NCBI GenBank assembly: GCA_032718475.1
Contig: JAUCBJ010003657.1
Coordinates: 1-38,518 of the forward strand
Length of the DNA stretch: 38,518 nt
Direction of reading: 5' to 3'
Source of the DNA: Nemertoderma westbladi
Lineage: Eukaryota; Animalia; Xenacoelomorpha
The notes below the pieces were generated by a model. That model searched no databases. It saw nothing but the letters and a program-made list of their open reading frames with translations, and had not been told where the DNA came from. Made by a program: the position numbers and the translations under genes. Positions within the stretch are counted from its first letter, which is position 1; every line of letters starts with the position of its first letter. This document shows positions 1,900-29,569 of the stretch, in pieces.

Positions 1900-2603
1900 G
1901 TATTCTATATATTCTCACATATTCTTTATATTCTCATATATTCTTTATATATTCTCATATATTCTTTATATATTCTCATATATTCTTTATATATTCTCAT
2001 ATATTCTTTATATTCTCATATATTCTTTATATTATCATATGTTCTTTATATATTCTCATATATTCTTTATATTCTCATATATTCTTTATATATTCTCATA
2101 TATTATTTATATTCCTTTATATTCTTTATATATTCTCATATATTCTTTATATTCTCATATATTCTTTATATTCTCATATATTCTTTATATTCACATATAT
2201 TCTTTATATATTCTCATATATTCTATATATTCTCATATATTCTTTATATTCTCATATATTCTTTATATTCTCATATATTCTTTATATATTCTCATATATT
2301 CTTTATATTCCTTTATATTCTTTATATATTCTCATATATTCTTTATATATTCTCATATATTCTTTATATTCTCATATATTCTTTATATTCTCATATATTC
2401 TTTATATATTCTCATATATTCTATATATTCTCATATATTCTTTATATATTCTCATGTATTCTTTATATATTCTCATATATTCTTTATATTCTCATATATT
2501 CTTTATATTCTCATATATTCTTTATATATTCTCATATATTCTTTATATTCCTTTATATTCTTTATATATTCTCATATATTCTTTATATATTCTCATATAT
2601 TCT
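1900..2603. repeat. AT-rich simple repeat (TATATTCTC / TATATTCTT variants)
   Basis: About 700 bp of interleaved 9-13 bp units, nearly G-free on the + strand. Confidence 0.97.
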
Positions 2604-2693
2604 TCTATTTTTTAAATAGATTATGTTGTCGTGCTGATAATGTTTTTGGCAGTTTGGAGAACAATACATTTTTTTGAGTGTATAAACCGGGCT

Positions 2694-2797
2694 TTAAGGA
2701 AACATCCAACCCACACTTTATAAGGTAAAACTTCCCTTCTGTGTCGCAGACGCCTGTTGGATTTACTGGCGAAAGGAAAGGAGCTGAGAGCAGACAA
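2694..2797. repeat. Interspersed repeat family A, left part (target of the LTR element; continues at 17794-17950)
   Basis: AAGGAAACATCCAACCCACAC...GGAAAGGAGCT matches 24012-24107 and 33118-33210. Confidence 0.85.
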
Positions 2798-3663
2798 AGT
2801 AAACAAAGTTATGACTTATACTACACACAACGATATGGCTTAGAATTCACGTATGAGACGCATTCTTTAGGAAATGCTTAGTTATCAATCACAATCTCGA
2901 TCATACACACTACCGGTACCGCACAATACTGCTCACTGGTTTGCCGACAGTTACTGACTTTGATCACACATAAAGAGAACAGCAATTGACTCATGTAGTG
3001 GCTATCAAATAGCATTAGATTCAATACAAACCACAATAATATACGTCGCAATTGTTATAAATAGCCTGTCTCTCTAACCTGTAGTGCATCAAGAAAATTG
3101 GGAAATTTGGGTTATTTGTTGATATTCTCCAAATAATAACATCCAACTAACTGACACAAATGATCACAAACAGTAAAGCAGTAAGACGGTAGGTTAAGAT
3201 AAGATATGATGTGTGTGATACACTGATATGAATTGAGTTGATAACAGTTATACGTTCTATAATCTAAGCCGACTAATATTTCTTATAAAATCAGAGAATG
3301 AATTGATTCTATAGCCGTTGTTTCTGGCTTAGAGATAAACACGTGACAGAAAGATCTAAATACTAAGAATACAAGCTACTCTTATGTTACAAGGGATCCC
3401 GTTCAACACATGGAAAGAGCATACAGATAGGATTTTCAGTTCAGTAGCTCTGTGATAGGTCAAAATCAAAACCAACTCAAATCCTATTGGCAGATACATA
3501 AGGCAGGGCTTATTGGCAACTTTCCTCCAGGGAAGAGCAATCAGCCAATCAACGAGTAACTTGTACCATTCAAACCAAAGATCCCCCTTTAGAGTATTCC
3601 AGCTCTTGGGGGGAACTGATTAGCAAAGCAAAATGAATCAGTGATCCCGCAAAAGCTTTTACA
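2798..3663 (-). repeat. 3' LTR (866 bp)
   Basis: Matches 16958-17793 except a 30-bp extra segment (3081-3110), one substitution (3562 T vs 17692 C) and the outermost base (A at 2798 vs T at 16958). Confidence 0.97.
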
Positions 3664-3671
3664 CCGCTCCC
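3664..3671 (-). promoter_or_regulatory. Short polypurine tract (GGGAGCGG) abutting the 3' LTR
   Basis: Minus strand reads ...TTCTGGGAGCGG|TGTAAAAGC; expected PPT position. Confidence 0.65.
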
Positions 3672-3741
3672 AGAAAATGGGATTTAAGTCTATAAAATAT
3701 ACAAAATCACAGTTTCTAAAATACGAAAATACTCTAAACAG

Positions 3742-5004
3742 TTAGTCTTTCTTGCTTGGACGGCGTTTACGCTGTTTTTTAAAGCTAGCCAGAGTCCTTT
3801 TCTTATTGGGGCGAGCCACTTTACAAGGAGGGCTATAACTCCTGGGCGAAGGGTGCAATATAATTGCATCAGAAGGTGCAGGATTGTGGTCGGTGTATCC
3901 GCCGGTTGAAGTGCCTGGTAGGTTGACATCAACTTCGGGGGACTGGGGTCTAACGGCCTTTAGAGCGCGTTTTAGGATGGCTGCTCTGACGGGTCCTTTA
4001 CGAGTGGTCTGAACGGAAGCTGTGGGAGGACCATAGGCCGTCAGAAACTGCCTGGGTTTAATGGTTCTTTCCAACTCGCGTTCGCGGGCTCGATATTCGT
4101 AAGGCCGCCGATATACTTCTTGTAACTCAGGATGTGAGTTAACGAATAATTCTCCATAGTCCGGGTCACTACGGATAAAATTAATTAAGTGATAGGAATG
4201 AATATCACTGGGATTAACTCTTCTGAGGAATTTGCGCACAAACTTAGTCGAGATGCATTCTCCGACGCGCTTCAGTAGTTCGTAACTCGGTATACGTGCT
4301 TTCTGTTCGACAGAAGCGAATAGATAAGGATGGAACGCATAAACTCCTTCGTAAGCGCGTCCAGGGTAGTAACGATGACGTGAGTTACAATGCAAGTCAG
4401 CATTCGCTTCCCAAGCTTTGATATAACGGAGTGGAATCAATTCATCTACACTTTCTAAATCGTTATTAAATGGACAATCAAAGCTGGCGTGTCCTTTCAG
4501 TTGACAATGGTGGCATTGCGTCATAAATTGGGGACAGACTGCAAAAATGTGAGAACTATTGAGTCGACAATAGGCACAGTAAATTTCCATCAACGGTTGT
4601 TCGTGGAAATAAGAACATGGGACGTTCGTGTCCATGGGCGTAATATGGTCTCTAGATGCGCATAACCGACAACGCTGTCGATCAACATAGTTGGCATGGC
4701 GATAATCGTACGCAGTGAGACACTGTGGACCTTGATACCATTCTAGAATGTAATCGTTGTCTTCGTTCCGGGGCGTGGTAGGTTGAATCTCTTCGGATTC
4801 TAGACATATTGGTTCGTCTTCCCAGTACATAGCTGAGGTGGACGTAGCTGTCTCTTCCGGTGGACCTACCGTTTGAATTTCCACGACAGAATAACCTGTG
4901 GTGATTCGAGGTCTTTGAATAACAGAAGAATGTAAATTCGATGTACAAATATCCTTAAAAATGGCAAATCCAGCACTATCTAGCTTCTCAGAGGCTGAGT
5001 TTGG
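3742..5004 (-). CDS. Accessory ORF segment 3: three CCHC-type zinc knuckles and a basic, NLS-like C-terminus
   Basis: Frame open from 5004, +1 to the preceding ORF; CRLCASRDH...C, CAYCRLNSSHIFAVC, CHHCQLKGHASFDC; ends KKRTLASFKKQRKRRPSKKD about 80 bp before the 3' LTR. Confidence 0.75.
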   Translation of the reverse strand, partial: PNSASEKLDSAGFAIFKDICTSNLHSSVIQRPRITTGYSVVEIQTVGPPEETATSTSAMYWEDEPICLESEEIQPTTPRNEDNDYILEWYQGPQCLTAYDYRHANYVDRQRCRLCASRDHITPMDTNVPCSYFHEQPLMEIYCAYCRLNSSHIFAVCPQFMTQCHHCQLKGHASFDCPFNNDLESVDELIPLRYIKAWEANADLHCNSRHRYYPGRAYEGVYAFHPYLFASVEQKARIPSYELLKRVGECISTKFVRKFLRRVNPSDIHSYHLINFIRSDPDYGELFVNSHPELQEVYRRPYEYRARERELERTIKPRQFLTAYGPPTASVQTTRKGPVRAAILKRALKAVRPQSPEVDVNLPGTSTGGYTDHNPAPSDAIILHPSPRSYSPPCKVARPNKKRTLASFKKQRKRRPSKKD

Positions 5005-6886
5005 TCAACGCGCGGTATTTAAATTGGCTATCCACGTTACGAAACGGTGTTAGAAATCGTCGGAAACATTCAAAGCGGATGAATTTATTATGTTCATCTA
5101 GCTTAGCGAGTTTGGTCCCAAGTACTAATGGATGAGCGCGTATAGTACGACTGCACACATCGGCTAGCCAACCGGAAAGTGCGGTATTTTCAAAGATCGT
5201 GTAGATAGCTAAGGAGGGACGGAGTGGAACACTCATGAAGCTATACACGGCGCCAGGTGCGGTCAATGGTCCGTCAAAGTATAATCGGGAATAATGGTCT
5301 CCATATACTTGTTGATAGTTTATGGGATTTCCAACTTTGAAATTCCATCCGTATTCCTGAAAGGCAAGATGTCCGATGGAAGTTCGTTGAACTTTGGTAA
5401 TGTTGCTAGACGTATTAGCATACATGGTGCGGAAGAAACCTTGGCCTTCTGCCCAAGGGGCAATTAACTGCGTATCCACGAAAGGATATGGTATATCCTC
5501 CATATTCCGAAAGTCGTTTTGGAGATCGCCATAAACAGCGGAACCGATTTTAAGGATTCTTTCGTTGAACAACATCTCAAGCACGGGCTGTGGTAACATC
5601 GATCCATCGATACCCATGGCCGGTTTGCGTTCGGTGTCGATGACATAACGCTCCGCAAGTACGAATTGACCATGTCGGAGATTCTTTTGTGTTTCAGTGA
5701 GAGTTTCAAAAGAATAATCAATCACGTCGGAACACGCTCGAGTAAACACGTGGGTAGAGCCGGCTAATCCGCGTATGTGGATCATGCGTGTGGTTCCTAA
5801 TTCTCCGATCGGAACGCTGCCTTCATTATCGTAGGTGACGACTCCATACATCTCAATGATATTAAGAGTTTCATTCCACTCCTTTGTAGCGTTCTCGAGA
5901 GTCATCCCTACTGGATGCCACAGGGTGGCGCATTGGTTAGCGTCAGGGAGATCACTATACTTCAGGGATTGAGTATTACACGTCTCCATATTTCCATTTC
6001 TTTGTATTCTCTCTTCCTCGAATAATACGTCGAGATTCCAATGGACTAATCGAGTTTTAATGAATCCATTGAGGTTATAGGGAGGTGTTGCCTCATTCTC
6101 AATTCTAGAGATGTTATATGGTTTTCTAAATGAGTTTACCTTTACTAACTGATCCAGATGTTTCTGTAATTGCTCGAGTTTGACAATGTCTAGAGGATTT
6201 ATTAGCGGTAGAAACTTAAAGTTATGCGTCGGATCTTCCGGTTTTATCAGATAATATTGAGTCAGATTAACGTAATAAGGGTGGTCTTTAATCCCATAAA
6301 ACGAGTTAGTTAAAGGTCTAGCGCGCATGTTGACATCGTGTACCATACGACGGACAAGATCCGCTCGATCGTCCGGAGGTTCAACGAGTATACCGTCAAC
6401 ACGAGCAGCTTCGATCGGCGGACGCTGTAACATGGGGGCGTCGGCGATAAGATCGCGTGATCTTATACTAATATCAACCGGTTGAGGTTGTGCCGTCGCG
6501 AAGAGTTTGTCTCCGAAATGGGGAATCATCGAGGGGTGACGGATGGTTTTAGAGTAGAGATCCGACATAAGGATTTGGGCTTCGGGTTGGGCTAAAGCGG
6601 CTTCTTCCCTCTCGTCCATTTCCGTATGTTTCTTTTCGAGTTGGTTCTCCTCCGCTTGTTGTTGTAGACGCTCGTCCAGAAACTCCTGTAGGGAATACGC
6701 CGCATCTCCGCGGATGTTTATGTCTTTCCGTTTGTTGATTGGGTCTAGGGCATTCGTCACAATAATACCAAAGACGTACGTCCTGGAGAGGAAACGCGGG
6801 TCATCGTTCTCCAGTTTTACAATATTCCTCCATTTGTTCAAAGCTATCGGGAACAACGGGTAGTGGACGATCGGCGGTGAGATACA
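4988..6886 (-). CDS. Accessory ORF segment 2: DEDDy 3'-5' exonuclease-like domain (RNase D/WRN/MUT-7/EXD-like)
   Basis: Frame open from 6886. ExoI VVTYDNEG (about 5820-5843), ExoII ILKIGSAVYGDL, FVDTQLIA, SIGHLAFQEYG and ExoIII-like PLRPSLAIYTIFEN occur in the expected order and spacing. Confidence 0.75.
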   Translation of the reverse strand, partial: CISPPIVHYPLFPIALNKWRNIVKLENDDPRFLSRTYVFGIIVTNALDPINKRKDINIRGDAAYSLQEFLDERLQQQAEENQLEKKHTEMDEREEAALAQPEAQILMSDLYSKTIRHPSMIPHFGDKLFATAQPQPVDISIRSRDLIADAPMLQRPPIEAARVDGILVEPPDDRADLVRRMVHDVNMRARPLTNSFYGIKDHPYYVNLTQYYLIKPEDPTHNFKFLPLINPLDIVKLEQLQKHLDQLVKVNSFRKPYNISRIENEATPPYNLNGFIKTRLVHWNLDVLFEEERIQRNGNMETCNTQSLKYSDLPDANQCATLWHPVGMTLENATKEWNETLNIIEMYGVVTYDNEGSVPIGELGTTRMIHIRGLAGSTHVFTRACSDVIDYSFETLTETQKNLRHGQFVLAERYVIDTERKPAMGIDGSMLPQPVLEMLFNERILKIGSAVYGDLQNDFRNMEDIPYPFVDTQLIAPWAEGQGFFRTMYANTSSNITKVQRTSIGHLAFQEYGWNFKVGNPINYQQVYGDHYSRLYFDGPLTAPGAVYSFMSVPLRPSLAIYTIFENTALSGWLADVCSRTIRAHPLVLGTKLAKLDEHNKFIRFECFRRFLTPFRNVDSQFKYRALTKLSL

Positions 6887-7427
6887 TCATAGTGAAATAG
6901 AGTCGTTTGAGTTCTACCATGGGGTCATGATGTATACCTTGAGGATATCGAGTCTCTAGGTTCTGTTGACTGGCAATATTGAGATAAGTTTCTCTCAAAA
7001 ATTCCAGGTAGTCGTTGAAGTCGATACGTTTATCTGGTTCCTCAATGTTTTCTCTTTCAAGTCGGTTACGAATAGAGTTCTCGTGATCTATTCTCGGTTT
7101 ATCGTTACGACTCCGCTGGGTATGATACTTAAATAAAACCATTTCCCTTTCGGTGTCTACATCGTCAGTATCATGTAAGTCGATAGGGTGGCCGGTAGTT
7201 AGGAAGTCCATATACGTACCATTACGATGTGTATAACGAGCAGTGAATTTTCTATAGTCCAATTCACGCGTGAGTTGCTCTTGAGACATCGGCGGTTCAA
7301 TATAACGACCATCGTCTTCCGTAGTAGTGGGATTGGGTTCACCACTTATCAAGCTATCCACAAACGCTTGTAAAGGTAGAGTATATCGCTCCCTGATACC
7401 AAGGTCATCTTCTATCAGCTCCGTCAT
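6801..7427 (-). CDS. Accessory ORF segment 1 (unknown acidic/helical domain); probably the N-terminus of a ~1,227-aa protein
   Basis: ATG-started 208-aa ORF overlapping the next ORF, which is in the +1 frame. Confidence 0.7.
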   Translation of the reverse strand: MTELIEDDLGIRERYTLPLQAFVDSLISGEPNPTTTEDDGRYIEPPMSQEQLTRELDYRKFTARYTHRNGTYMDFLTTGHPIDLHDTDDVDTEREMVLFKYHTQRSRNDKPRIDHENSIRNRLERENIEEPDKRIDFNDYLEFLRETYLNIASQQNLETRYPQGIHHDPMVELKRLYFTMMYLTADRPLPVVPDSFEQMEEYCKTGER

Positions 7428-7478
7428 ATCTGCTATCGGAGTTTATTAATGTTACAACGAGTTTATATTGTATATTTC

Positions 7479-7657
7479 AGGCGAGCGGGCGTCGCTGCCT
7501 AACACTCTCGGCCCCCCGGACAGTGGGATCCTCAGCGCCGATGTACCGCTGTCGCAGTGTTTACGCCAACGTTGTAGCAACAGCACGACAACGATAACCG
7601 GCACAAGTCACTCCACTGTCCGTCCCAAAGGCTTGGATCCACTTGAGGTTCTTTATA
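7479..7657 (-). promoter_or_regulatory. Candidate internal TATA promoter and GC-rich structured leader of the accessory ORF
   Basis: TATAAA at 7657-7652 (minus strand), about 30 nt upstream of a GC-rich island with nested complementary segments; ATG at 7427. Confidence 0.4.
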
Positions 7658-8180
7658 TGAGAGTTAGGTTTACTTTACAATTGCGACTAGCTACTGTAAA
7701 CACACTTTAGTAGCAACATTCACCTACAAACACACAAACTCCACACAACTGTCACCAATTATAAGCATACAGGCCATTTGTCTGTTAGTCAATGCCTTCC
7801 AGAATGTCACGTTGTTATTGCGTATCTTTGGATACTAAACAGTGTGCTATGTAATCTCTATACTAGGCAATGGGACAAGCTTTCTATTGTTCCTTTAACT
7901 CGTTTCTAATTCTAGCGTGGGTGTTGCCATGGTGACATTATGGAAAGCTAGCGGTAGAATTAGAGTAATTCTCATGCATACAGATCTGGGATGCTATTTA
8001 ATAGTAATTCTTTGATTGTTAATATCCTCTTTATGCATGATTTTATTAATTTTATCGGCTATTGACTATATGTTGGAGATTCTCACACTCTAACACACTT
8101 AATGGGATGAATCTCCGCTCCCATGATCTATTAATTAATGGCATTTTGGGAATATTATAAATTGCATAAAATGACAATTT

Positions 8181-9018
8181 GTGGCTGGCCACGAGAAAAG
8201 GGACCTTATGTCGCAAAACCTGATTCTGAGATAATCGCGTTTAAAGTTTCCCTCTATTTTTGAACAAATTTAATTGGATTATCAATTTAGAAATGTATAA
8301 AACGATGAGGGAAATTCAAATTGGTTCTGATATTCAATATACCTAGGAAATAACTAATTACAGGAAGCAATATAAGATGTTGCAGTGTTGTATATAACAC
8401 TGTCTTAGGGTTTTCATGTCTGAATATAGGACTGTAATAAAATTGTACTAACTGTAATAAGTAGGTACTGTAGGCCTACAGTTATTTTTTAAATGCAATA
8501 TGGCTGTCATTTTCTTAATTTATCTTCGTTAGTTCTTAAATTTTGTAATCCCAATAAAGAATTCAAAATACAAATAATTTTAAATTTTGTAAAATAAATT
8601 TATCTTTTTGAAAAGATTTTAAATTAAAAAAATAAAATTTTTGGTTACATGTTTTTTTGAAAATTTTGCAAAAATGTTTTTAAAATAGTTCATGAACAAT
8701 GTTAATAGTTTCAAAGTGTTAAAAGTTGTATAAAAAGTCAAATAACATTGAGTTGCCTAACTATATAGTAAGAATTGCTATGATATTATTAATATTTTCC
8801 ATTTTTTTTAAATAATCGCTTATTATAACCACTATTAATAAAATTTTTTTGGCTACCCGTTTCACCTTCACATAAATCGCTATAACGTTTTTTTAGAAAT
8901 AGATATTGAGACACCGTTTTTTTTTGTTAGAATCTCTGGAAAATTCTGCATCTCATAGACCTAATAACTCAAAATCGACCTCCGGTGACATAAGGTCCCT
9001 TTTCTCGTGGCCAGCCAC
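8181..9018. mobile_element. Non-autonomous DNA transposon (Sola-like MITE) nested in the retrotransposon
   Basis: Perfect 32-bp TIRs (GTGGCTGGCCACGAGAAAAGGGACCTTATGTC; 8181-8212 / 8987-9018), 4-bp ATTT TSD (8177-8180, 9019-9022), very AT-rich non-coding interior. The superfamily call rests on the AWWT TSD. Confidence 0.88.
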
Positions 9019-9097
9019 ATTTATTAAATTCATTTAAAGATATGAATTTAAATTTATTCCCGTGAATTTTATTATTTGATGGTAAAAGTGACATAAT

Positions 9098-9403
9098 TTT
9101 ATTCCAGAGCATGTCTGGGGACCTAGGATCCTTAATTCTATGAAAATTGTCGTTTAAGAGTATCGGTAAGTGCTACGATATCTTAATCGACTAGAATTGT
9201 TAAAGGATCTGAATTTTACAGATTTTGATTTATAGATTTATAAATATTAAATAATTAATATTTGAGATGGGCACCAATTTATTCCAGAACTTGTCTGGGG
9301 ACATTAACCACTGATTCTAGAATTTGTCTTTCAAGTATATCGGTGGGTGCCACGATATCTTAATCGACTAGAATTACAGATGGTCAAAAAGTTTAACAGA
9401 TTT
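9098..9403. repeat. Diverged duplication (period about 177 bp) of a two-hairpin unit
   Basis: TTATTCCAGA...TGTCTGGGGAC at about 9099 and 9279; identical 24-mer at 9175-9198 and 9352-9375. Confidence 0.85.
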
Positions 9404-9943
9404 ATTTGCGTTTTACGCTACTGTTTAGGGACATCACGCTACTATATGTATTATTTAATATAAGGTAGAAGAGCAATATCGCACGAAGCAATGTCAGTGT
9501 GAAGAGGCAAGTCGTTTCCAAGGTCTACCCAGAGCTTGGTTTAGCCGAGACACGAGGATCTGAACTTTGCATTCCTAATACTCTGCCTACCAATAATACT
9601 TGAATATAGTAGGAGCTTTATTGTACTTTAATAAGTACGGACATGTCATCTTACTGTAGTCTCGCATTTATAATATAATACGGACAGTAAGGAAAGAGAA
9701 AAGAATTATTTCTCGCCGTCGCACTAGATATATTATATGTAATTATGTAATAAACTCTAATATATTGCACTAATCTACTAAATAATCTAAAATAACATTC
9801 TACTAAATAAAATTAAATAAAACGATTATAATAAAATACATAATAATCCATAGATAAATATAAAATAATAAAAAAAAATATAAAATAATATAGTCACACA
9901 CCCACTCCATATATAATTACGTTATGGAGTCCCTAGATCTTTG

Positions 9944-11665
9944 TCAAATTAGGGAAGTGGTCGTAGGAAGAGTATCTTGCCTTCCATGGTTTCCGGACAG
10001 TTTTCGGTCTCTTTCCAGTAAACCTAAGCGACCAGCTGGGCGATTAGGCTGTCGTGTTACTTCCTCCGCTCCCTTGGCCTGTCTAATCTTCGCCGTGGTA
10101 AGATGAAAAGGCCATTCATCTTCTTCTTTACTTAGGGAGTCGGGTCCACCTAACCAGCCGGGAGTATCTATCCGTTCTTGAGGAGTTGCTCCTCTGGAAG
10201 CGATGTCGGCTAGATGAATCATCTCGGGGCGATGTCTCCATTGATCTACATTGGAGTTAATATCGTCATTATCTGAGGAGTATGGTGTTCCCTCAGTGGG
10301 TTCGTCCACTTCACTGCTCCCCTCTTCCCAATCCTTTACTTGAAGTAGCCGGTCTTGTGGCAATCTTTCTTCAAGAGTTCTGCGGGAAGGGCCAGTAAAG
10401 TACCAACCTACTCTAGTTCTTACCGCATAAGTTTGTAATGGCTGCGGTTGAGCAGGCCGTTTCTCCAATGTCTCGAGCGCCTCATGCGCGTTTTGGCCGA
10501 TGAGGATTTGCACTCCAGGATAATCGGTTTGGAATCGAGGTATCTCAAGATGTTGGATGCTCTCGTCCTCGTCCCAGTTATAAGGTTCTACTTGGGTAGT
10601 AGCGAAGTTCTTTATTGCCACCATTTTTACTGACCTTATACTTTGTTCTCCTAATTTATCCTGTGGGGTGGACAACGCACCTATATAGTAATCTGCCATT
10701 ATGGTAGATTTCCAAACTGGCATAATTCCGGACATATTTAACTTAGTTCGGAATTTGGGTTGTCCAGCAAAGATGTCCTCGGCTAGTTCTTTGTCGATGA
10801 ATGTTCCTGTACTGCCGGAGTCAAGGAGGGCATTCACTATGTAACTCTTATTAGGACCGTGAACTCTTACCTGTACCACAGGAAATTCTCGTATTCCTAC
10901 GTGGGAGGTTGGAGCTTTCCAAGATGGTTGTCTGTCAAAGGTGGTTGGGGGGAACTCCGTGTTGGTGTCTTTTTCGTACGTAAGTGCTCGATACACTGCG
11001 GTATTTATTAGATAACAGGATTCGTTGGCATCGGAGAATTCATCCGTATAGAATCCTTCCCACTCAGAACTTTGGTCAGTGTCGTTCACATCACTGAATT
11101 GGACATGTGATTTGGGCTCACTTACCTGACTCGGGCGGTTTCGTTCGAATTCCGTGTGCAACAAGCTATGATGTTTCGCGCCGCACTTAGCACACCTTGC
11201 GTCAGAGTAACAGGTTCGCCGCTGGTGTCCGCGTCTGAGACAGTTATAACACAACCGCTTATCCCACAGGACTCCACGTCTATCTGCCAGGGATTTCTTT
11301 AGGAATTCTGCACACGCACTCAAACGGTGGGGCCCGTCGCACAGCGCACATTTTGGTTTGATGTTACTCACTTTACCTTGGGTAATGTTATGCACTTTCG
11401 CTCGTTCTTCGGGCTTTCTTACCTGAATTCTGTTGGGAGACTGAGGAGGGGTCTTGGCAACCTGTTCTCTCCTATCATTGGTTCGAGACTTGTATTTACT
11501 TACGTCTTTTGGGGTTTTGTGGTCATAGTAAGATCTTGCTGTGTCTTTCCCGCTGTCCTCATCTTGAGAAGCTTGGCTTTCGCCGTCGTCAGTATAACAT
11601 ACTGGGTTTACCCTTCTCCTAGTAACTGGTTTCTCACTTTTCCGATGTTTTTTCTCTAGACTGCT
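9944..11665 (-). CDS. pol: Gag nucleocapsid zinc knuckles + aspartic protease + RNase H C-terminal remnant (internally deleted pol), +1 frame relative to gag
   Basis: Frame is open from 11665 (the ORF-track start at 11395 is a GTG). CALCDGPHRLSAC, CYNCLRRGHQRRTC, CAKCGAKHHSLLH; ALLDSGSTGTFI; ILIGQN; RTRVGW; then QWRH...ADIASRG...WLGGPDSL...EWP. No RT YxDD and no integrase motifs. Confidence 0.9.
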   Translation of the reverse strand, partial: SSLEKKHRKSEKPVTRRRVNPVCYTDDGESQASQDEDSGKDTARSYYDHKTPKDVSKYKSRTNDRREQVAKTPPQSPNRIQVRKPEERAKVHNITQGKVSNIKPKCALCDGPHRLSACAEFLKKSLADRRGVLWDKRLCYNCLRRGHQRRTCYSDARCAKCGAKHHSLLHTEFERNRPSQVSEPKSHVQFSDVNDTDQSSEWEGFYTDEFSDANESCYLINTAVYRALTYEKDTNTEFPPTTFDRQPSWKAPTSHVGIREFPVVQVRVHGPNKSYIVNALLDSGSTGTFIDKELAEDIFAGQPKFRTKLNMSGIMPVWKSTIMADYYIGALSTPQDKLGEQSIRSVKMVAIKNFATTQVEPYNWDEDESIQHLEIPRFQTDYPGVQILIGQNAHEALETLEKRPAQPQPLQTYAVRTRVGWYFTGPSRRTLEERLPQDRLLQVKDWEEGSSEVDEPTEGTPYSSDNDDINSNVDQWRHRPEMIHLADIASRGATPQERIDTPGWLGGPDSLSKEEDEWPFHLTTAKIRQAKGAEEVTRQPNRPAGRLGLLERDRKLSGNHGRQDTLPTTTSLI

Positions 11666-14552
11666 TTATGAGTTGTAGTTTGACTTCACCGTCTAGGAAT
11701 GACATGAGATCAGCCATGGTAGGGCTCCGTCGTTGTTGCTCCATCATATACAACACTTTCTTGTCCCAGCAAGTACATACTCCACCCTTTGGTAAAGTAG
11801 AGACTATGGCTCCAATAACCATAGAACTCTGATATTCATGAGACTTACCTAACCAATCCAATTGTCGACAGATCTCTTGAATCTCATCGGAAAACTCTAT
11901 AATCTCGTTACTAAGGAATTTTCGGGGAGCTACTAATTTTGCATACAAATACTTAGCTATGTTATCCTTATTACCATACCTGGTGTTTAATGTATCCCAA
12001 ACTTGTCTTAATCCATTTGGATGTCCAATAAACTTCAACGCCATTAACTTGGGAGGTCCTTCCAAACATTTGATGAGGAATCTCAGTTTCTCTCCGCTAG
12101 ATAGTACAGAGTTCTGTATGCTATCTTCGTAATATTCATTAAAAGGTAACCATTTCATCTCGTCCCCATTGAATTTGACGATTTCTCCCACTTTGACTGC
12201 TTGGCGGGCTTCTGTTCTAGCCATCTGACGCGTAAAGCTTTCTTGGGCCATCGTGTTATTTAATATCGAATTATCGGTATATAAATTTCTCGGATTATTA
12301 TCAGGTCTATAGGGAATATCATTACCAACAGGTTTATAATCACCCTTAATAGGGTTTGCTATAGGAGTTTCTACTTCACTAGCAGTATAGATGCGTGTAG
12401 GCTCCACACCTTGCGCATGAAATATTTCAGGCCTAACAGGTTGACACATTGTTACAGGGGGTGTTGGTATGCCCCTTTTTACATTTACTAATTTATCGCG
12501 TTCTAGCGCGATACTTTGCTGCACTTCTTGCAGCTCTAACCTACTTTCCCTGACAGTTCCCCTGAACTGGTGGACCGTCTCCTGCATCTGTCCGAGCAGG
12601 ACATTCATCCCCCTCCATCCCTCTTCCACCCACTCGACCGCCGAAGCGGGAGTCGCCAACGTTGTGGCGGGCGGGCGAGGGACTACGGGCGACCAATCCA
12701 TTCGCTCGGAGTCCATGACAGGAACCATTTCAGGGGCTATTCTACTAGGCACTGATAGTTTCGTGCTGTGTAAAGGGAATTTAGAGGTTGCTCCCTGGAA
12801 TACAGGTGTCTCTAGCACCGGAGTGGTGGCTTCGAGAACAGGCCTAATTATTTCAGGCTCATCTGTTATAGTAGGGAGTCTACTTACAGTAACAATTCGG
12901 TCTGTGGGTCCTGCACTACTTACGGCTGTGCTAGCTAGTTGTCTTCTAACAGCTGGAGGTAAATCAGGCAATTTCTGACGGGGAGACGTTCTTTTACGCC
13001 TACTTAGACGAGACCTATTTCCTCCACCTTCAGGGTCGGTGGTGTCTCCTTCCTCCGATGATGTATAGCCTTGTCGTTTGGAAGTAGATCGACTCATCAT
13101 TTGCATTCGGCTATCCGTTAACCGTTTATTTATACTATCTTGACTTTCCTGAATATTTTCCAACGCTAGCTGGGCGATCTCGTCAGACGCTCTCCTTTCT
13201 GCTTCGGCCAATGCCTCCGCCGCTTTTCTTTCTGCCTCTGCAACTGCAGTCTTTCTTTCTGCCTCTGCCTCTGCCTCTGCTTCTGCGGCCTTTCTTTCTG
13301 CTGCCTTTCTTTCTGCTTCTGCCTCCGCGGCCTTTTTTGCCGCTTCCACTGCCGCTGCCGCTTTTGCCGCTGATTCTACCTTTCGGTCCTCTATCTGTTT
13401 TTTCTTAACTTGTTCTTCCTGGGCTCTAGCGATGCGGAGTTGTTCATCAAATTTAGCTTGGTTTGCAGCTAACATTTCAATATCAATTGCGTCCAACACA
13501 TGCTTGGTTCCTTCACTATTAGGGGAAAGTCCAGCCAGCCGTCTTCTCAACTCCTCGTCTCCTAGGAATCTCTGATAGTCTGATAGATAGATATCAATGT
13601 CGTCTCTCGGTCGCGGTCTCTCTGATGTCACTTCACTTTCCACTTGAGAAAAGGTGGCATTGGTCGATTCTTCGTAGGTTGGTCGCTCAGCCAACCGGGA
13701 TTTCCACTGGGCTGTTTCTTGAACCTTGAGACCTACCCGCTGGAACCAAGTCTTGACAGCAACTTGCAGCGACGTGTCCTGCCTTCTTTTGGAAGTTTCC
13801 TCAAAGGCCGATAGGATCAGTCTGATGCGTAGAGTTCTTTCGCGTACTTGATAAAGCAGCTCTTCCTGCTCTTGGGGTCCTTTTGGTTGTCGAAACAGTT
13901 GTTCTTCTAGTCTCTCTAAGGAGCCGAAGAATCCCTGCACATATCCTGCTGCCGACCTCTTCCAAACAGCTGGATCCATTGTATCTTTAGCCACTCCCAT
14001 CCGGTATATTTCTTCCCAAGTAGCTTCTGACAAATCTAACGGGAATCCGGGTCCGGGAAAGTTCCATTGTGACTCGACAATAGACATCAATTCTTCCCTT
14101 GCGTATCCCGCATAACTATCCTGGGTCGATCGCTTATTCCTCGCCCAATCGCCTTGGTGTTCCTCCACCGCAATCAAGATCGTAGTTAGTACTGCGGCGG
14201 GAAGAGTTAGAAGGGGATCCGAGTAAGCTGTATCCACCATCTTCACTCCGCGTTCGGGAATCAGCTCGACAGTATCCGAACTACTGGAGCTATCGGGTCG
14301 CTTGGAACTAGGTTCTTGACCAAGACGTTGCTGCGATAGGCCAGCTGCCTCTCGATTCCGTTTGACCTGGGCTCGAGTGCCTATGATAGACCTATGGTGG
14401 ATTAGCTTAGGGTCTGATACTACTGGAGGAGTGACCTTTCTTTTAGTAGGAGGTGAACTGAACTCCTTTCTTAATCGTTCCACACTCCTATCCTTGTCAC
14501 AGATGGTTATATCAAGTAGACTATCCGATAGGTTTTGTTGTGTGTCAGACAT
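11634..14552 (-). CDS. gag: Gag (BEL/Pao capsid-like DUF1759-type domain at the C-terminus; long N-terminal extension with Ala/Glu/Lys coiled-coil repeats)
   Basis: 972-aa ATG-started ORF; IVKFNGDEMKWLPFNEYY...EKLRFLIKCLEG...WDTLNTRYG...PTMADLMSFLD is the typical BEL Gag pattern. Confidence 0.9.
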   Translation of the reverse strand: MSDTQQNLSDSLLDITICDKDRSVERLRKEFSSPPTKRKVTPPVVSDPKLIHHRSIIGTRAQVKRNREAAGLSQQRLGQEPSSKRPDSSSSSDTVELIPERGVKMVDTAYSDPLLTLPAAVLTTILIAVEEHQGDWARNKRSTQDSYAGYAREELMSIVESQWNFPGPGFPLDLSEATWEEIYRMGVAKDTMDPAVWKRSAAGYVQGFFGSLERLEEQLFRQPKGPQEQEELLYQVRERTLRIRLILSAFEETSKRRQDTSLQVAVKTWFQRVGLKVQETAQWKSRLAERPTYEESTNATFSQVESEVTSERPRPRDDIDIYLSDYQRFLGDEELRRRLAGLSPNSEGTKHVLDAIDIEMLAANQAKFDEQLRIARAQEEQVKKKQIEDRKVESAAKAAAAVEAAKKAAEAEAERKAAERKAAEAEAEAEAERKTAVAEAERKAAEALAEAERRASDEIAQLALENIQESQDSINKRLTDSRMQMMSRSTSKRQGYTSSEEGDTTDPEGGGNRSRLSRRKRTSPRQKLPDLPPAVRRQLASTAVSSAGPTDRIVTVSRLPTITDEPEIIRPVLEATTPVLETPVFQGATSKFPLHSTKLSVPSRIAPEMVPVMDSERMDWSPVVPRPPATTLATPASAVEWVEEGWRGMNVLLGQMQETVHQFRGTVRESRLELQEVQQSIALERDKLVNVKRGIPTPPVTMCQPVRPEIFHAQGVEPTRIYTASEVETPIANPIKGDYKPVGNDIPYRPDNNPRNLYTDNSILNNTMAQESFTRQMARTEARQAVKVGEIVKFNGDEMKWLPFNEYYEDSIQNSVLSSGEKLRFLIKCLEGPPKLMALKFIGHPNGLRQVWDTLNTRYGNKDNIAKYLYAKLVAPRKFLSNEIIEFSDEIQEICRQLDWLGKSHEYQSSMVIGAIVSTLPKGGVCTCWDKKVLYMMEQQRRSPTMADLMSFLDGEVKLQLIKQSREKTSEK

Positions 14553-15783
14553 ATTCAGTTATACAGTTGAATGCCTACTGCTATAGTTTCAGTTAAAGCA
14601 AATCTAGTAATTCAGTAAGACTGTTGGCCTAGTACCGGTAATTAATTACAATATATTAGGATACCGGTATACACTTATAATATATATAAGTATTGCAGAC
14701 TAGGTTTGTTACAGAATACCGGTATATAATTACAGTGCAAATATATACAACTATATAATAAGCCTATTATAGATACCGGTATGTCAATTATTTAGGATAA
14801 TTGAATTTCTGAAATTATAAGGTTACTTAGTTACTTGAGTTTACTCTATTACCGTTATTTTAGCAGTAGTCCAACTGATATTAAGACCTAATTGTTGTAT
14901 GACAGGCCTACTAGTTTATAAATCTTTTAAGTTGATTTATAATATTTATATATATATACCCTGATGATAAGGGGTTTTGTTACAATACTGAAATAGATGT
15001 TACTATTTCTGGGAAATAATCACTACACAGAAGCTGTGCGCTCTCAGTGAAGTGCTACTTGTTGGACACTAAAACGAATAATCCTACTAGTCTACGTTAC
15101 TTATCTACTAATTACTTACAATATTGGTGAGATTACAATCTCTAATAAACACACGAAAAAACTATACGTACGAAATTTTAGGGTAATTTAACAGGGAAAC
15201 TACGAACCAGTCTAGCAAAGGGTTAGGAATTCTGGTTATTACAACGGACAGGATAATACGGTATTTGAAAATAATAAGCAGAAGTAATATACTGCGTTGT
15301 CCAGATAGAAAAATACCACCGCCTGACGACCTACAGCCGTATCGTTATAGGTACTACGTTATGTATCACGGAGTGTTCCTACCTAGAAGTTAATAGAGCT
15401 AACGAATGTGCCTATCAACCACTTTACAACACAAATATAACGCCTACACTAATTACTTTCGGAAAGCACTGTACACTAAACCCTAAATTAGGTACAAGTA
15501 CTTGTAAAACAGATAACCAGTAGTTAAATATACTTGAACAGTTAAAAGAACCACAGCATCTGCTGGAGTGACCGGAGCACAAAGTCACCAGTCTTTACCT
15601 ACGCCAAGCAGCCCGTGTAGTACCGGGGTTAATTTAACTATAACGGTATGTATAACAAACACAATTACTGTAGGAATAAACTTGGGGACATGAATGTTGC
15701 GAGTAATCGCATAAACTCTGAATAATAAATATTACGCTACCCGTACAGAATACTCAAATAAAATACAAACCAAAATGCTGGCA

Positions 15784-16290
15784 GACTACTATCAAGCCTA
15801 AACAAACTACAGTATGTGCAGATTCCGAAACTGTTAGTTAGTATGCGCGCTAATACGGTAGTACGACTTATTCTTTAGCAGGGGGTTGACCTTACAACTA
15901 CGAGTTGCCCCAACTTACTAACTGGCACTTTATCAGACTTACTCTACACACGCAGCTGTTCCTTCAGACCTAACAACAGCCAGACAACAATCCAGCCTAC
16001 AAATATCTGAATAATTTTACGGTACCTGAACAGACTATACAAACAATACAGGATAAACGCTGACGGACTACTATCAAGCCTAAATAAACTACAGTATATG
16101 CAGATTCCGAAATTGTTAGTTAGTATGCGCGCTAATACGGTAGTACGACTTATTCTTTAGCAGGGGGTTGACCTTACAACTACGAGTTGCCCCAACTTAC
16201 TAACTGGCACTTTATCAGACCTACTCTACACACGCTGTAATCTTCAAGCCTAACAACAGTCAGACAACAGTCCAGCCTACAATGATCTGA
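15784..16290. repeat. Direct repeat (two copies of about 225 bp, period 282 bp) in the retrotransposon 5' leader
   Basis: GACTACTATCAAGCCTAAA...CTCTACACACGC at 15784 and 16066, nearly identical over about 170 bp. Confidence 0.93.
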
Positions 16291-16456
16291 ACAATCTGAG
16301 CAGACTTACACGTCTTCAGCTCAATATTAACTTACTAGGAAATAAAACCGACAGAAATAAATAAGCTCCAAAAGAAACAAGGGGTGTACAGTCCCTAATC
16401 TCTTAAACAGCCTACCGGTATATAATAATCAAAATCGAATAATACTAATGTACTTA

Positions 16457-16587
16457 TACAGCAGTACCGGTTATGACAGTTGGGCCTACTGACCTACAGA
16501 AGTACCGGTTCTGGCAGTTGGGCCTACTGACCTACAGCAGTACCGGTTCTGGCAGTTGGGCCTACTGACCTACAGAAGTACCGGTTC
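16457..16587. repeat. 38-bp tandem repeat (about 3.4 copies) in the 5' leader
   Basis: TACAGMAGTACCGGTTCTGGCAGTTGGGCCTACTGACC units start at 16457, 16495, 16533 and 16571. Confidence 0.93.
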
Positions 16588-16898
16588 AGGTTTACCGGTC
16601 GACCGGTACTTAGCAACCTTATTGCTTACTGCAATAAGAACGTATAACTGTTATTGTACGCGCTTTTGGAGACCTTTAGCAGTTTAACCTGCCAAAATTT
16701 ATATGTCTCTTGTTGGTAAATTGATTTTATAAGAATGACAAGATTTAATACAAAATAAACACAACATTAGCCGAAGCCAGCCTGTGCGCGTTCATTCACC
16801 CGATGGCTACGCCCGGGAGACTGGATTCGTGTGCTTAGATTTATTGCAGTGAAGCCTACGTGTATTATTCGATTGATCAGTAATATATAATCTCTGAT

Positions 16899-16953
16899 AA
16901 ATATTATTCACTTTCGGGAAATATTAACAGTTCCTTTAGGACGTGGCGCTCTA
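16899..16953 (-). promoter_or_regulatory. Primer-binding-site region (non-canonical, no TGG) and conserved leader block
   Basis: Starts after a 4-nt spacer following the 5' LTR; 55 nt identical to 37213-37267 in the diverged sister element while the adjacent LTRs differ substantially. Confidence 0.7.
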
Positions 16954-16957
16954 TCTA

Positions 16958-17793
16958 TGTAAACAAAGTTATGACTTATACTACACACAACGATATGGCT
17001 TAGAATTCACGTATGAGACGCATTCTTTAGGAAATGCTTAGTTATCAATCACAATCTCGATCATACACACTACCGGTACCGCACAATACTGCTCACTGGT
17101 TTGCCGACAGTTACTGACTTTGATCACACATAAAGAGAACAGCAATTGACTCATGTAGTGGCTATCAAATAGCATTAGATTCAATACAAACCACAATAAT
17201 ATACGTCGCAATTGTTATAAATAGCCTGTCTCTCTAACCTGTTATTTGTTGATATTCTCCAAATAATAACATCCAACTAACTGACACAAATGATCACAAA
17301 CAGTAAAGCAGTAAGACGGTAGGTTAAGATAAGATATGATGTGTGTGATACACTGATATGAATTGAGTTGATAACAGTTATACGTTCTATAATCTAAGCC
17401 GACTAATATTTCTTATAAAATCAGAGAATGAATTGATTCTATAGCCGTTGTTTCTGGCTTAGAGATAAACACGTGACAGAAAGATCTAAATACTAAGAAT
17501 ACAAGCTACTCTTATGTTACAAGGGATCCCGTTCAACACATGGAAAGAGCATACAGATAGGATTTTCAGTTCAGTAGCTCTGTGATAGGTCAAAATCAAA
17601 ACCAACTCAAATCCTATTGGCAGATACATAAGGCAGGGCTTATTGGCAACTTTCCTCCAGGGAAGAGCAATCAGCCAATCAACGAGTAACTCGTACCATT
17701 CAAACCAAAGATCCCCCTTTAGAGTATTCCAGCTCTTGGGGGGAACTGATTAGCAAAGCAAAATGAATCAGTGATCCCGCAAAAGCTTTTACA
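16958..17793 (-). repeat. 5' LTR (836 bp), TGTAAA...TTTACA termini
   Basis: Direct repeat of 2798-3663; TG...CA ends with a 6-bp inverted terminus; lacks a 30-bp segment present in the other LTR. Confidence 0.97.
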
Positions 17794-17950
17794 GTCTCAT
17801 AAAGGCAATCAAAGGCGGCAAGTATTAAGACCTTTATAGAACAATTATTAGTAACTAACCTTAGTATAGATACCACTGCGTGTTAGTTATCACTTTAAAT
17901 TACATTCTTATGATTAACTGTCAAAGAAAGACCGCTGCCGCCTGGCTTCC
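17794..17950. repeat. Interspersed repeat family A, right part
   Basis: GTCTCA...AATCAAAGGCGGCAAGTATTAAGACC...GCCTGGCTTCC matches 24144-24301 and the copy near 33248-33405. Confidence 0.85.
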
Positions 17951-18062
17951 AGTTACATACAGACTGCCGGCACCGGCCTACCAGTTACAGACAGGGGCGT
18001 CGCCAATTTTTACATCAATGTAATTTACTTGAACAGTGAAAAAATAATAATAAAATTAAAGG

Positions 18063-18638
18063 TGCCGGTGTTCAACCCGCTGGCGGACACCAACGCAGCG
18101 ATGTCGCTGGACGCCGCCCACCTCCATCACGAGGCGAGGAAGATCTGTGAGGTTGAGCACTCAACCTTCACCCCCCTCATATTTTCCGCGTTCGGGGGCA
18201 TGGCGCCGGTTGCGAAGCAGTTTGTTAAGCGGCTGGCGGTGTCGGAGAAATGACAGGTTCCCTACCCGGAGTCGGTAGCGTGGGTGCGGCGACGCATCAA
18301 CTTCGCCTTACTCCGGTCGTCCCTGATGTGCCTCCGTGGGTTCCGGTCGGCCGTTAGAAGACCGGAGCGGGCAGCGGTGGTGGACGCGTCCATTGTGGGG
18401 GCGAACGCGGACTCGGACCCCGGACGGCTTGGATCTTAGATGTTAGAGGTCTGGCAGGTTTTGTTGGGTACCGGCAGTAGTGGCAGACTGGTGAACTGAA
18501 CCAATTTGTATTGTTGCTAGGTAACAGTTTGAATCAGCTGGTGGTGGGTTATTTTTGTACTTGTTTATGTGCGTTTTTATATGTGAATTATTGTTTGTTT
18601 ATATCATAATATACGGAGGCTTTTGAGTAAAAAAAAAA
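18063..18638 (+). mobile_element. 5'-truncated CRE-like (restriction-like endonuclease) non-LTR retrotransposon 3' end
   Basis: GC-rich island translating VFNP...EVEHSTFTPLIFSAFGGM...FVKRLA..SEK*QVPY...WVRRRINFALLRSSLMCLRGFRS (internal stop 18251-18253, final stop 18437-18439), then a 3' UTR and a poly(A) at 18629-18638. Confidence 0.82.
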
Positions 18639-18911: not shown

Positions 18912-20842
18912 CGGGCGCGGGGTCACGCTTCTACACGGGGTGATGTGTCACGTCTCTACCCGAGCGCGGGGTCACGTCTCTACATGGGCGTGGGGTCACG
19001 CTTCTACACGGGCGCAGGGTTACGCTTCTAGACGGGCACGGGTTGATGTGTCACGTCTCTACCCGGGTGCGGGGTCACGTCTCTACACGGGCGCAGGGTC
19101 ACGCTTCTACACGGGCGCGGGGTCCCGCTTCTACACGGGCACGGGGTGATGTGTCACGTCTCTACCTGGGCGCGGGATCACGTCTCTACACGGGCGCAGG
19201 GTCACGCTTCTACACGGGTTGATGTGTCACGTCTCTACCCGGGCGCGGGGTCATGTCTCTACACGGGCGCAGGGTCAAGCTTCTACACGGGCGCGGGGTC
19301 ACGCTTCTACACAGGCACGGGGTGATGTGTCATGTCTCTACCTGGGCGCGGGGTCACGCTTCTACACGGGCATGGGCTGATGTGTCACGTCTCTACACGG
19401 GCGCGGGGTCACGTCTCTACATGGGCGCAGGGTCACGCTTCTACACGGGTGCGGGGTCACGTCTCTACACAGGCACAGGGTGATGTGTCACGTCTCTACC
19501 TGGGCGCGGGGTGACGTCTCTACACAGGCGCAGGGTCACGTTTCTACACGGGCGTGGGGTCACGCTTCTACACGGGCACGGGGTGATGTGTCACGTCTCT
19601 ACCCAGGCGCGGCGTCACGTCTCTACACAGGCACAGGGTCATGCTTCTACACGGGCGCGGGGTCACGTCTCTACATGGGCGCAGGGTCACGCTTCTACAT
19701 GGGCGCGGGGTCACGCTTCTACACGGGCACTGGTTGATGTGTCACGTCTCTACCCGGGTGCCGGGTCACGTCTCTACACGGGCGCAGGGTCACGCTTCTA
19801 CACGGGCGCGGGGTCACGCTTCTACACGGGCACGGGGTGATGTGTCATTTCTCTACCCGTGCGCCGGGTCATGTCTCTACACGGGCGCAGGGTCATGCTT
19901 CTACACGGGCACGGGGTGGGGTGATGTGTCACATCTCTACCCGGGCACTGGGTCACGCTTCTGCACTGGCACAGGGTGATGTGTCACGCTTCTACACGGG
20001 CGCGGGGTCCCGCTTCTACACGGGCACGGGGTGATGTGTCACGTCTCTACCTGGGCGCGGGATCACGTCTCTACACGGGCGCAGGGTCACGCTTCTACAC
20101 GGGTTGATGTGTCACGTCTCTACCCGGGCGCGGGGTCATGTCTCTACACGGGCGCAGGGTCAAGCTTCTACACGGGCGCGGGGTCACGCTTCTACACAGG
20201 CACGGGGTGATGTGTCATGTCTCTACCTGGGCGCGGGGTCACGCTTCTACACGGGCATGGGCTGATGTGTCACGTCTCTACACGGGCGCGGGGTCACGTC
20301 TCTACATGGGCGCAGGGTCACGCTTCTACACGGGTGCGGGGTCACGTCTCTACACAGGCACAGGGTGATGTGTCACGTCTCTACACGGGCGCAGGGTCAC
20401 GTCTCTACACGGGCGCAGGGTCATGCTTCTACACGGGCGCGGGGTCACGATTCTACACGGGCACAGGGTGATGTGTCACGTCTCTACCCGGGCGCGGGGT
20501 CACGCTTCTACATGGGCACGGGGTGATGTGTCACGTCTCTACCCGGGCGCGGGGTCACGCTTCTACACGGGCACGGGGTGATGTGTCACGTCTCTACCCG
20601 GGCGCGGGGTCACGCTTCTACACGGGCAAGGGGTGATGTGTCACGTCTCTACCCCGGGCGCGGGGTCACCCTTCTACACGGGCACGGGGTGATGTGTCAC
20701 GTCTCTACCCTGGCGCGGGGTCACGCTTCTACACGGGCACAGGGTGATGTGTCACGTCTCTACCCGGGCGCGGGGTCACGCTTCTATATGGGCACGGGGT
20801 GATGTGTCACGTCTCTACCCCGGGCGCGGCATCATGTCTCTA
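18912..20842. repeat. GC-rich minisatellite of mixed 24-bp and 31-bp units
   Basis: GGGCGCGGGGTCACGCTTCTACAC (24) and GGGCACGGGGTGATGTGTCACGTCTCTACCC (31); higher-order duplication with an 885-bp offset. Confidence 0.97.
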
Positions 20843-23587: not shown

Positions 23588-23862
23588 ACACGGGGTCACG
23601 CTTCTACATGGGCACGGGGTTATGTATCACGTCTCAACCCGGGCGCGGGGTCACGTCTCTACACGTTCGCGGGGTCACGCATCTACATGGGCACAGGGTG
23701 ATCTGTCACGTCTCTACTCGGGTGCGGGGTCACGTCTCTAAACGGGCGCGGGGTCACGTCTCTAAACGGGCGCGGGGTCACGTCTCTACACGGGCACGGG
23801 GTCACGTCTCTTCCCGGGCACGGGGTCACGTCTCTACCCGGGCTTGGGGTAATGTCTCTACA
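23588..23862. repeat. Second short array of the same minisatellite
   Basis: Same GGGGTCACGTCTCTAC core. Confidence 0.93.
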
Positions 23863-26485: not shown

Positions 26486-26558
26486 GGTCACGTAGTCTAG
26501 TGGTAATCAATCACGTTAACGATACTTAAGTTCGTGGGTTCGAAACCCAATATGACCA
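26486..26558 (+). pseudogene. tRNA-like remnant (A box/B box), copy 1
   Basis: 73 nt; TAGTCTAGTGG and GGTTCGAAACCC; GGTCA/TGACC acceptor pairing; anticodon arm does not pair. Confidence 0.6.
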
Positions 26559-29495: not shown

Positions 29496-29569
29496 GATCA
29501 CATAGTCTAGTGGTTATCAATAACGTTAATGAAACCTAAGTTCGCGGGTTCGAAATCCAATATTGACCA
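29496..29569 (+). pseudogene. tRNA-like remnant, copy 2
   Basis: Homolog of 26486-26558 in the second 3-kb unit. Confidence 0.55.

Follow-up and report, generated by a model that had tools for sequence, protein, structure and literature searches.

DEDDy-type exonucleases are known from mobile elements. In bdelloid rotifers, the long terminal repeat (LTR) retrotransposons Juno and Vesta, as well as the Terminons, encode a DEDDy exonuclease with a DEED motif as a third open reading frame (ORF3) at the position of env; according to the available portion of the paper describing them (PMC5408684), such exonucleases had been unreported in retrotransposons before 2017. Rotifer DEDDy ORF3s are also covered in the available parts of PMC5718144, PMC6431247, and PMC6338049. 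Dada DNA transposons carry a DEDDy domain inserted in their DDE transposase (PMC3706591, available part), and among cellular enzymes TbRND of Trypanosoma brucei combines an RNase D domain with four CCHC fingers that strengthen both the binding and the cleavage of RNA and recognize guide RNAs by their U-tails (PMC7797062, available part). The question of why retroelements acquire DEDD exonucleases has been open since the 2017 rotifer report, which dealt with a few copies and did not demonstrate selection. Here, we analyze a stretch of 38,518 nucleotides of DNA from Nemertoderma westbladi (contig JAUCBJ010003657.1, hereafter the window), whose minus strand carries an LTR element of 15 kb with a third gene encoding a putative RNase D-type exonuclease followed by zinc knuckles.

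The third gene lies between the pol remnant, which ends at 9944, and the polypurine tract (PPT) and 3' LTR (3664/3663), on the minus strand, which is the sense strand of the element. The coding region that the initial annotation had placed there is found as three open stretches, each in +1 relative to the preceding one. Piece A (6801 to 7442; 213 amino acids (aa), first ATG at 7427) ends in a stop that is not common to other copies, contains no known domain, and matches no family at E <= 0.2. Piece B (4988 to 6886) is an open frame of 632 aa that is probably coding only below about 6700, and piece C (3742 to 5004; 420 aa) comprises an acidic Pro/Ser/Thr linker, knuckles, and a basic tail, all three pieces being on the minus strand.

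Piece B holds a predicted RNase D-type 3'-5' exonuclease domain (5126 to 5896, minus strand), delimited from motifs, profile searches, and the homolog P0001, a protein of 648 aa that was the sole match among 1.84 billion representatives (E 1e-6, 31% identity). The motifs YDNEG (5833-5819), KIGSAVYGDL (5551-5522), FVDTQ (5482-5468), and YTIFE (from 5203) are present on the minus strand where they had originally been annotated. They supply the candidate catalytic positions, namely the ExoI Asp (5830-5828) and Glu (5824-5822), the ExoII Asp (5527-5525), the DTQ motif, and the ExoIII Tyr (5203-5201) and Glu (5191-5189), so that the putative site reads D-E-D-Y-E in both the window and P0001. The DxE of ExoI and the Asp of ExoII are those of DEDDy exonucleases; at ExoIII, YxxxE is found in place of YxxxD in the window and in P0001, and the domain is for this reason filed as a DEDE variant and not as a canonical DEDDy enzyme. 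ExoIII was assigned on the basis of the motif spacing PL-x6-Y-x3-[DE], which 16 of 30 bacterial domains contain, all of them with Asp, and which the window and P0001 each contain a single time, with Glu; by chance, it arose in 115 and 198 of 20,000 shuffles (0.6% and 1%).

Profile comparisons point to the same family. The NCBIfam model for RNase D, TIGR01388, matches over ExoII (E 0.0036), and in a comparison of Atlas features 24 of 30 matches were PF01612 (0.92), with 157 features shared versus 170 typical within the family. A two-sequence profile, made from the exonuclease domain of the window and that of P0001, was searched over 201 bacterial genomes and gave matches in 14 of them at E <= 0.01. 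Each of the 14 proved to be a DEDDy domain within a frame of RNase D size (387-461 aa), called as such by its match (E <= 2e-55) to a profile of 30 bacterial PF01612 domains, and the four located in genomes also searched with PF01612 all coincide with PF01612 loci. An hhalign comparison with the 30 bacterial PF01612 domains gave a probability of 92.6 and an E-value of 4.5e-7, with ExoI, ExoII, and DTQ in register. The RNase D-type exonuclease that the initial annotation had proposed, with Glu at its last acidic position, is thereby supported. Judged by these comparisons, the domain in the middle of the protein belongs to the RNase D-type exonucleases, from which it has diverged strongly, and its likeness to the family is more than chance; the Asp-to-Glu change shared with P0001 may mark an undescribed DEDE subfamily.

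P0001 is encoded on a 9,449-base contig from the ENA. Its domain is 29-31% identical to that of the window, all five putative catalytic positions are alike, and it presents the same order of exonuclease, low-complexity linker, three knuckles, and basic end, without the long N-terminal part. The P0001 knuckles resemble those of retroviral nucleocapsid (NC; E 1e-4) and Air2 (E 0.06), and the match between the knuckles of the window and P0001, equalled by 1 of 5,000 shuffles, may be generic. Conservation of the region behind the knuckles was considered and rejected, since its score of 19 was reached by 4,924 of 5,000 shuffles. No close cellular homolog was found among the 1.84 billion representatives; in the homolog searches, residues 300-632 of piece B and alignment A2 gave no matches, and P0001 found only itself. 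Piece B had no match in metagenome contigs, and none was found in viral contigs, phages, or plasmids, nor in prokaryote contigs with alignment A2. One metagenome fragment obtained with alignment A2 (L001, 644-1088) agrees at 56% over 25 residues with the ExoII stretch of the window, carries ExoI- and ExoII-like motifs in two frames, and matches PF01612 weakly (E 0.05).

Downstream of the exonuclease, three Cys/His zinc knuckles are located at 4474 to 4671 (minus strand), with the spacings CX2CX4HX9C, CX2CX5HX4C, and CX2CX4HX4C, and match zf-CCHC_3 with an E-value of 0.00074, under the curated cut-off. Three CCHC knuckles had been annotated; their number and place hold, whereas the canonical CX2CX4HX4C spacing is restricted to the third. 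The basic tail, also noted earlier, contains 14 Lys or Arg among the last 40 residues of piece C. The maximum 19-residue hydropathy is low in all pieces (0.46 in A, 1.1 in B, and 0.82 in C), which argues that the sequence present in this copy has neither a signal peptide nor a transmembrane segment, the two features expected of env, in agreement with the former description of a non-env accessory gene. An HRDC domain was not matched by Pfam in pieces B or C or in P0001, although a divergent HRDC could escape such a search.

To learn about the distribution of this gene, we turned to five public runs from four studies (X1 to X5) that contain parts of the window. No run is recorded as RNA, although X5 may be. 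When the whole element is divided into 30 bins, four runs cover every one of them, and the runs of the four studies yielded 4,663, 2,028, 95, and 40 contigs on 4880-6980, most of them less than 99% alike, with contig depth being no measure of copy number. The many divergent contigs indicate many copies, spread over organism A and a second organism, the latter with long contigs that align without gaps (X5 records 27, 28, and 31). The third gene therefore belongs to a many-copy family. No contig joins it to gag or an LTR, the linkage being seen in this copy only. The listed differences in 5005-6662 fall 10/1/15 on codon positions 1/2/3 (n = 26, p 0.003); those within the exonuclease domain fall 1/1/8, and none of the listed differences affects a catalytic codon. 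This distribution is a sign of constraint on piece B and not an estimate of the ratio of nonsynonymous to synonymous substitution rates (dN/dS). The many copies and the coding-type differences in piece B speak against the case that the initial annotation had considered fatal to its reading, an ORF confined to this copy and decaying neutrally.

The same contigs correct the architecture of the gene, which had been read as a single protein of 1,227 aa joined by two +1 junctions. The first real break lies at 6662 to 6705 (minus strand), where other copies hold several hundred more bases. Loose contig ends occur at 6705-6707 in X1 (31 contigs), X4, and X5 (255 letters), record 14 of X3 and records 22-24 of X4 stop at 6659-6699 and then run on unlike the window, and contigs diverging at 6659-6707 continue for 130 to 490 letters. 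The overlap between pieces A and B (6804-6886) is crossed with 0 gaps by X3 record 16 (6814-6951) and X5 record 32 (6730-6957), so that a +1 shift within it was rejected, and the stop ending piece A is private to this copy. Because a private stop and several hundred missing bases are involved, the 1,227-aa join is wrong; either the intact product is longer than 1,227 aa, or piece A is a separate frame. At the second break (4988 to 5004, minus strand), this copy has lost a few bases near 4991 in a short deletion that shifts the frame. One contig each in X4 and X5, which constitute all the depth there, cross it and carry further bases, indicating that pieces B and C form one frame in other copies, and programmed frameshifting at this junction was rejected for the same reason; loose ends are seen in X1 and X3. 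Two contigs, one from X4 and the other from X5, part from the window at position 6801 and continue in AT-rich letters; to the eye, these look similar to the sequence immediately upstream of piece A and may represent a variant without this piece.

The carrier was identified by comparison with BEL/Pao elements. The Belpaoviridae are described as metazoan elements that have a short PPT and whose LTRs measure 0.2-1.2 kb (PMC8742986), and a triple Cys-His box, which ends CX2-4CX3HX4H, and an LLDXG/LIG protease are given as hallmarks of Pao-like elements in the available part of PMC554778. In the window, a gag ORF of 974 aa (11634 to 14558, minus strand) contains a DUF1759 capsid-like domain (PF03564, E 3.9e-13) and an Ala/Glu/Lys repeat, and a frame of 573 aa (9944 to 11665, minus strand) contains a nucleocapsid triple Cys-His box, an aspartic protease (Asp_protease_2, E 0.0014-0.007) with LLDSG and LIG motifs in the translation, and short stubs. 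All three BEL/Pao marks, the DUF1759 gag, the triple Cys-His box, and the protease, are thus present, supporting the BEL/Pao origin claimed at the outset. The 5' LTR (16959 to 17793, minus strand), given as the stretch common to both LTRs, starts with TG on the minus strand and has an uncertain inner (U5) boundary, whereas the 3' LTR (2799 to 3663, minus strand) has an outer end without the terminal CA, and no target-site duplication was seen. Their sizes, and the short PPT read from the sequence next to the 3' LTR (3664 to 3671, minus strand), are within the described ranges. Of the 835 bases that can be aligned between the LTRs, 834 agree, and a stretch of 30 nucleotides (nt) is found in the 3' LTR only.

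Reverse transcriptase (RT) and the integrase core are absent from this copy, as judged from the ORF translations and Pfam, so that the RT-RNase H-integrase set of BEL/Pao is missing and the carrier is filed as an internally deleted derivative and not as an autonomous member; by its sequence, it is an internally deleted BEL/Pao element. We take the stubs after the protease (9944-10330, minus strand) to resemble the terminal motifs of BEL RNase H and of integrase, respectively; Pfam gave no match for them. The frame is open through both stubs, RT/RNase H and the integrase core having seemingly been lost by two in-frame deletions. In run X5, the bin 9796-10309 has a depth of 510 versus 40-90 in its neighbours, about tenfold. 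A +1 offset at 11634-11665 separates the capsid-like part of gag from the nucleocapsid knuckles. The spacer between the pol remnant and the third gene measures 2.5 kb and includes a secondary insertion resembling a miniature inverted-repeat transposable element (MITE; 8180 to 9019, no strand assigned) with perfect inverted ends (33/33 bp), at which contigs in X1 and X2 skip 846 bases. An 18-nt primer-binding site (PBS) for tRNA-Arg or tRNA-Gly was not recognized by eye behind the 5' LTR, where the LTR boundary is uncertain and no host tRNA set was at hand, and Rfam gave no matches in 2500-18000. One X1 contig links 2768 to 17801 in the manner of an empty site (positions 2768-2799 and 17794-17801). 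An older inverted LTR-like remnant at 36666-37352 matches 16815-17471, at about 80-88% in the best blocks; it has the 30-nt stretch absent from the 5' LTR and extends 140 bases beyond the shared LTR end, and, going by this remnant, the full length of the LTR may exceed 835 bases.

As for its function, we tentatively favour the view that the third gene encodes an active 3'-5' RNase acting in trans and most likely trimming or destroying short single-stranded host RNAs, such as PIWI-interacting RNA (piRNA) or small interfering RNA (siRNA) guides. The domain itself is likely an active 3'-5' RNase, given that the Tyr and all four acidic residues have been retained. By analogy with TbRND, the studied protein with the nearest architecture, the knuckles would hold single-stranded RNA and present its 3' end to the nuclease, where a two-metal site of Asp, Glu, Asp, Tyr, and Glu would remove nucleotides from the RNA 3' end; acting in trans, the enzyme would degrade the small RNAs that silence the element. 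This copy combines LTRs that differ by 1 base with an interior containing a stop, two deletions, and a MITE and lacking RT, which suggests that it probably moved when already damaged and that the third gene would then not be needed in cis. The small-RNA reading is preferred because BEL/Pao replication generally proceeds without such a gene and because trans action fits a diffusible counter-defence. Silencing RNAs would most likely be the substrate, which is the least supported step of the proposal. A broader claim, in which an animal BEL/Pao lineage encodes a small-RNA-destroying DEDE RNase D with its array of knuckles as a counter-defence and the many-copy form is a satellite that, lacking RT and integrase, has retained gag, protease, and the nuclease and depends on an autonomous element for everything else, strikes us as quite unlikely in its entirety.

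Several observations weigh against the trans-acting RNase. Pfam and PDB sequence searches with piece B gave no DEDD match, and single-sequence scores to the 30-domain profile were low (7.5 and 12.1 bits), with none of 1000 shuffles reaching them. hhalign places ExoIII differently from the motif-based assignment. The two AlphaFold models are of low confidence (pLDDT 30 and 32), and fold searches with them, in which Foldseek found no match at E <= 0.001 and VIA a best Z of 2.5, are uninformative on the fold. The codon test draws on 26 differences from 40 listed of 373, and no such pattern appears in the listed rows for piece C (1/3/4, n = 8), gag (3/2/2, n = 7), or pol (1/1/2, n = 4). The near-identical LTRs would likewise be accounted for by a recent conversion between them or by a collapse in the assembly, the present results fit small-RNA substrates and the element's own RNA alike, and activity may be reduced by the Asp-to-Glu exchange at the last catalytic position. 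Reportedly, Glu was tolerated at this position in mutagenesis of the Klenow exonuclease, for which our literature search found no supporting paper. Finally, the rotifer DEDDy ORF3 has no clear link to copy number in the available portion of PMC5408684.

Its substrate could also be the element's own RNA. An RNase D-like enzyme serving replication would be packaged or recruited via the knuckles and would trim the primer tRNA, the 3' end of the element RNA, or RT intermediates, a role that we regard as possible, if doubtful. It would suit the profile result, which picks out bacterial RNase D, a tRNA 3'-end processor, even where stand-alone exonucleases exist (G013 and G029), as well as the resemblance of the P0001 knuckles to retroviral NC and Air2, and 3'-end processing was proposed by Rodriguez 2017 (PMC5408684, available part). 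The lack of a recognizable canonical PBS behind the 5' LTR would also fit, although it is weak evidence given the uncertain inner boundary of the LTR. Against this role, most BEL/Pao elements replicate without such a gene (PMC8742986), no such domain is named in PMC3118150, and gag already has three knuckles of its own. The Glu at the last catalytic Asp in both the window and P0001 raises another alternative, an RNA-binding adaptor with little or no catalytic activity, comparable to EXD1, Maelstrom, or Egalitarian, that sequesters small RNAs or carries the element RNA to the germ line. The long N-terminal part of unknown fold and the basic tail would be in keeping with such an adaptor, and the available part of PMC5408684 cites DEDD derivatives of the piRNA pathway that are inactive. 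The adaptor is nevertheless unlikely, as neither the Tyr nor any of the four acidic residues differs between two proteins of 30% identity. Pseudo-enzymes usually lose several catalytic residues.

The state of this copy, broken at three places and without RT and integrase, yet recently moved, would suit a captured host or foreign gene that rides neutrally in a non-autonomous element, as would the rotifer ORF3s, which show no clear departure from neutrality in the available portion of PMC5408684. Such a passenger is improbable in view of an intron-free length of 3.7 kb, the avoidance of differences at second codon positions, the gap-free long contigs of the second organism, and the lack of a close cellular homolog among the representatives searched. 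A divergent envelope or other membrane protein, for which only the position of the gene speaks, is highly improbable: the sequence present has no hydrophobic segment, a statement that does not extend to the stretch lost from this copy, and the homology is to a nuclease and knuckles.

Other repeats were noted elsewhere in the window. A 111-aa frame at 17918-18253 (plus strand) is presumably similar to the C terminus of a protein from a non-LTR retrotransposon. Foldback-like elements are located at 21005-21740 and 741-1614, the first with inverted arms of 16-bp tandem repeats. A tandem duplication at 25059-30920 has a spacing of about 3,010 bases, with units 81-98% alike, and minisatellites at 1901-2604, 18912-20829, and 23591-23862 are made up of AT-rich 19/21-bp and GC-rich 24/55-bp repeats.

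Returning to the trans-acting RNase, we compared the gene with the described systems. A literature search confined to open papers, outside Repbase and GyDB, found no BEL/Pao exonuclease gene in print, part of it probably having missed the name as written with a slash. An RNase D-like domain, together with env and without a knuckle array, has reportedly been described by Malik et al. in 2000 in the Cer BEL elements of C. elegans; if so, that case would have both its element superfamily and its nuclease superfamily in common with the present gene. In a BEL/Pao survey, PMC3118150, the word "exonuclease" occurs 0 times, PMC8742986 names only env-like extras, and the available parts of PMC3985635, PMC7998251, and PMC11662393 hold no BEL precedent.

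With bacterial RNase D (TIGR01388, PF01612), the domain shares the ExoI DxE, the ExoII Asp, the DTQ, and the PL-x6-Y spacing, and it differs in that no HRDC was found, in two insertions within the domain, in the Glu at ExoIII, and in the added knuckles. Like Dada, the element is a mobile element encoding a DEDDy-type exonuclease; unlike it, Dada keeps all four DEDD residues and is proposed to act on DNA ends, according to the part of its description available. The arrangement of exonuclease, linker, and CCHC knuckle array is that of TbRND, given that pieces B and C form one frame in other copies, whereas TbRND, as described in the part of the paper available, is a mitochondrial enzyme of the cell itself, in which the linker is short and the knuckles number four. 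No TbRND chain was among the PDB matches at E <= 10, and as no sequence link to TbRND was found, the likeness may be convergent. The first Atlas cluster for P0001 carries the pair of exonuclease and CCHC Pfam domains and is commonest in Euglenozoa (0.86), which serves as a lead only.

The closest counterpart among retroelements is the rotifer ORF3 as presented in the available text, since in both cases an RNase D-like third ORF without a transmembrane segment or coiled coil occupies the env slot and has one acidic position altered. The gene described here differs in its BEL/Pao carrier, in reading DEDE and not DEED, the third acidic residue being Asp, and in its many copies with a sign of constraint. 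It also has three C-terminal CCHC knuckles and a long N-terminal part, the two proteins being likened by description only ("CCHC" occurs 0 times in PMC5408684). The family extends the DEDD third gene to BEL/Pao, with many copies in at least one animal and a sign of constraint on the nuclease, and the knuckles, with a solved cellular analogue in TbRND, suggest a concrete assay. If piRNAs or siRNAs are indeed the targets, the gene would represent an element-encoded enzymatic counter-defence in an animal. DEDDy third ORFs and the architecture of an exonuclease followed by CCHC knuckles are each already known, and a BEL/Pao carrier with knuckles is an extension of both.

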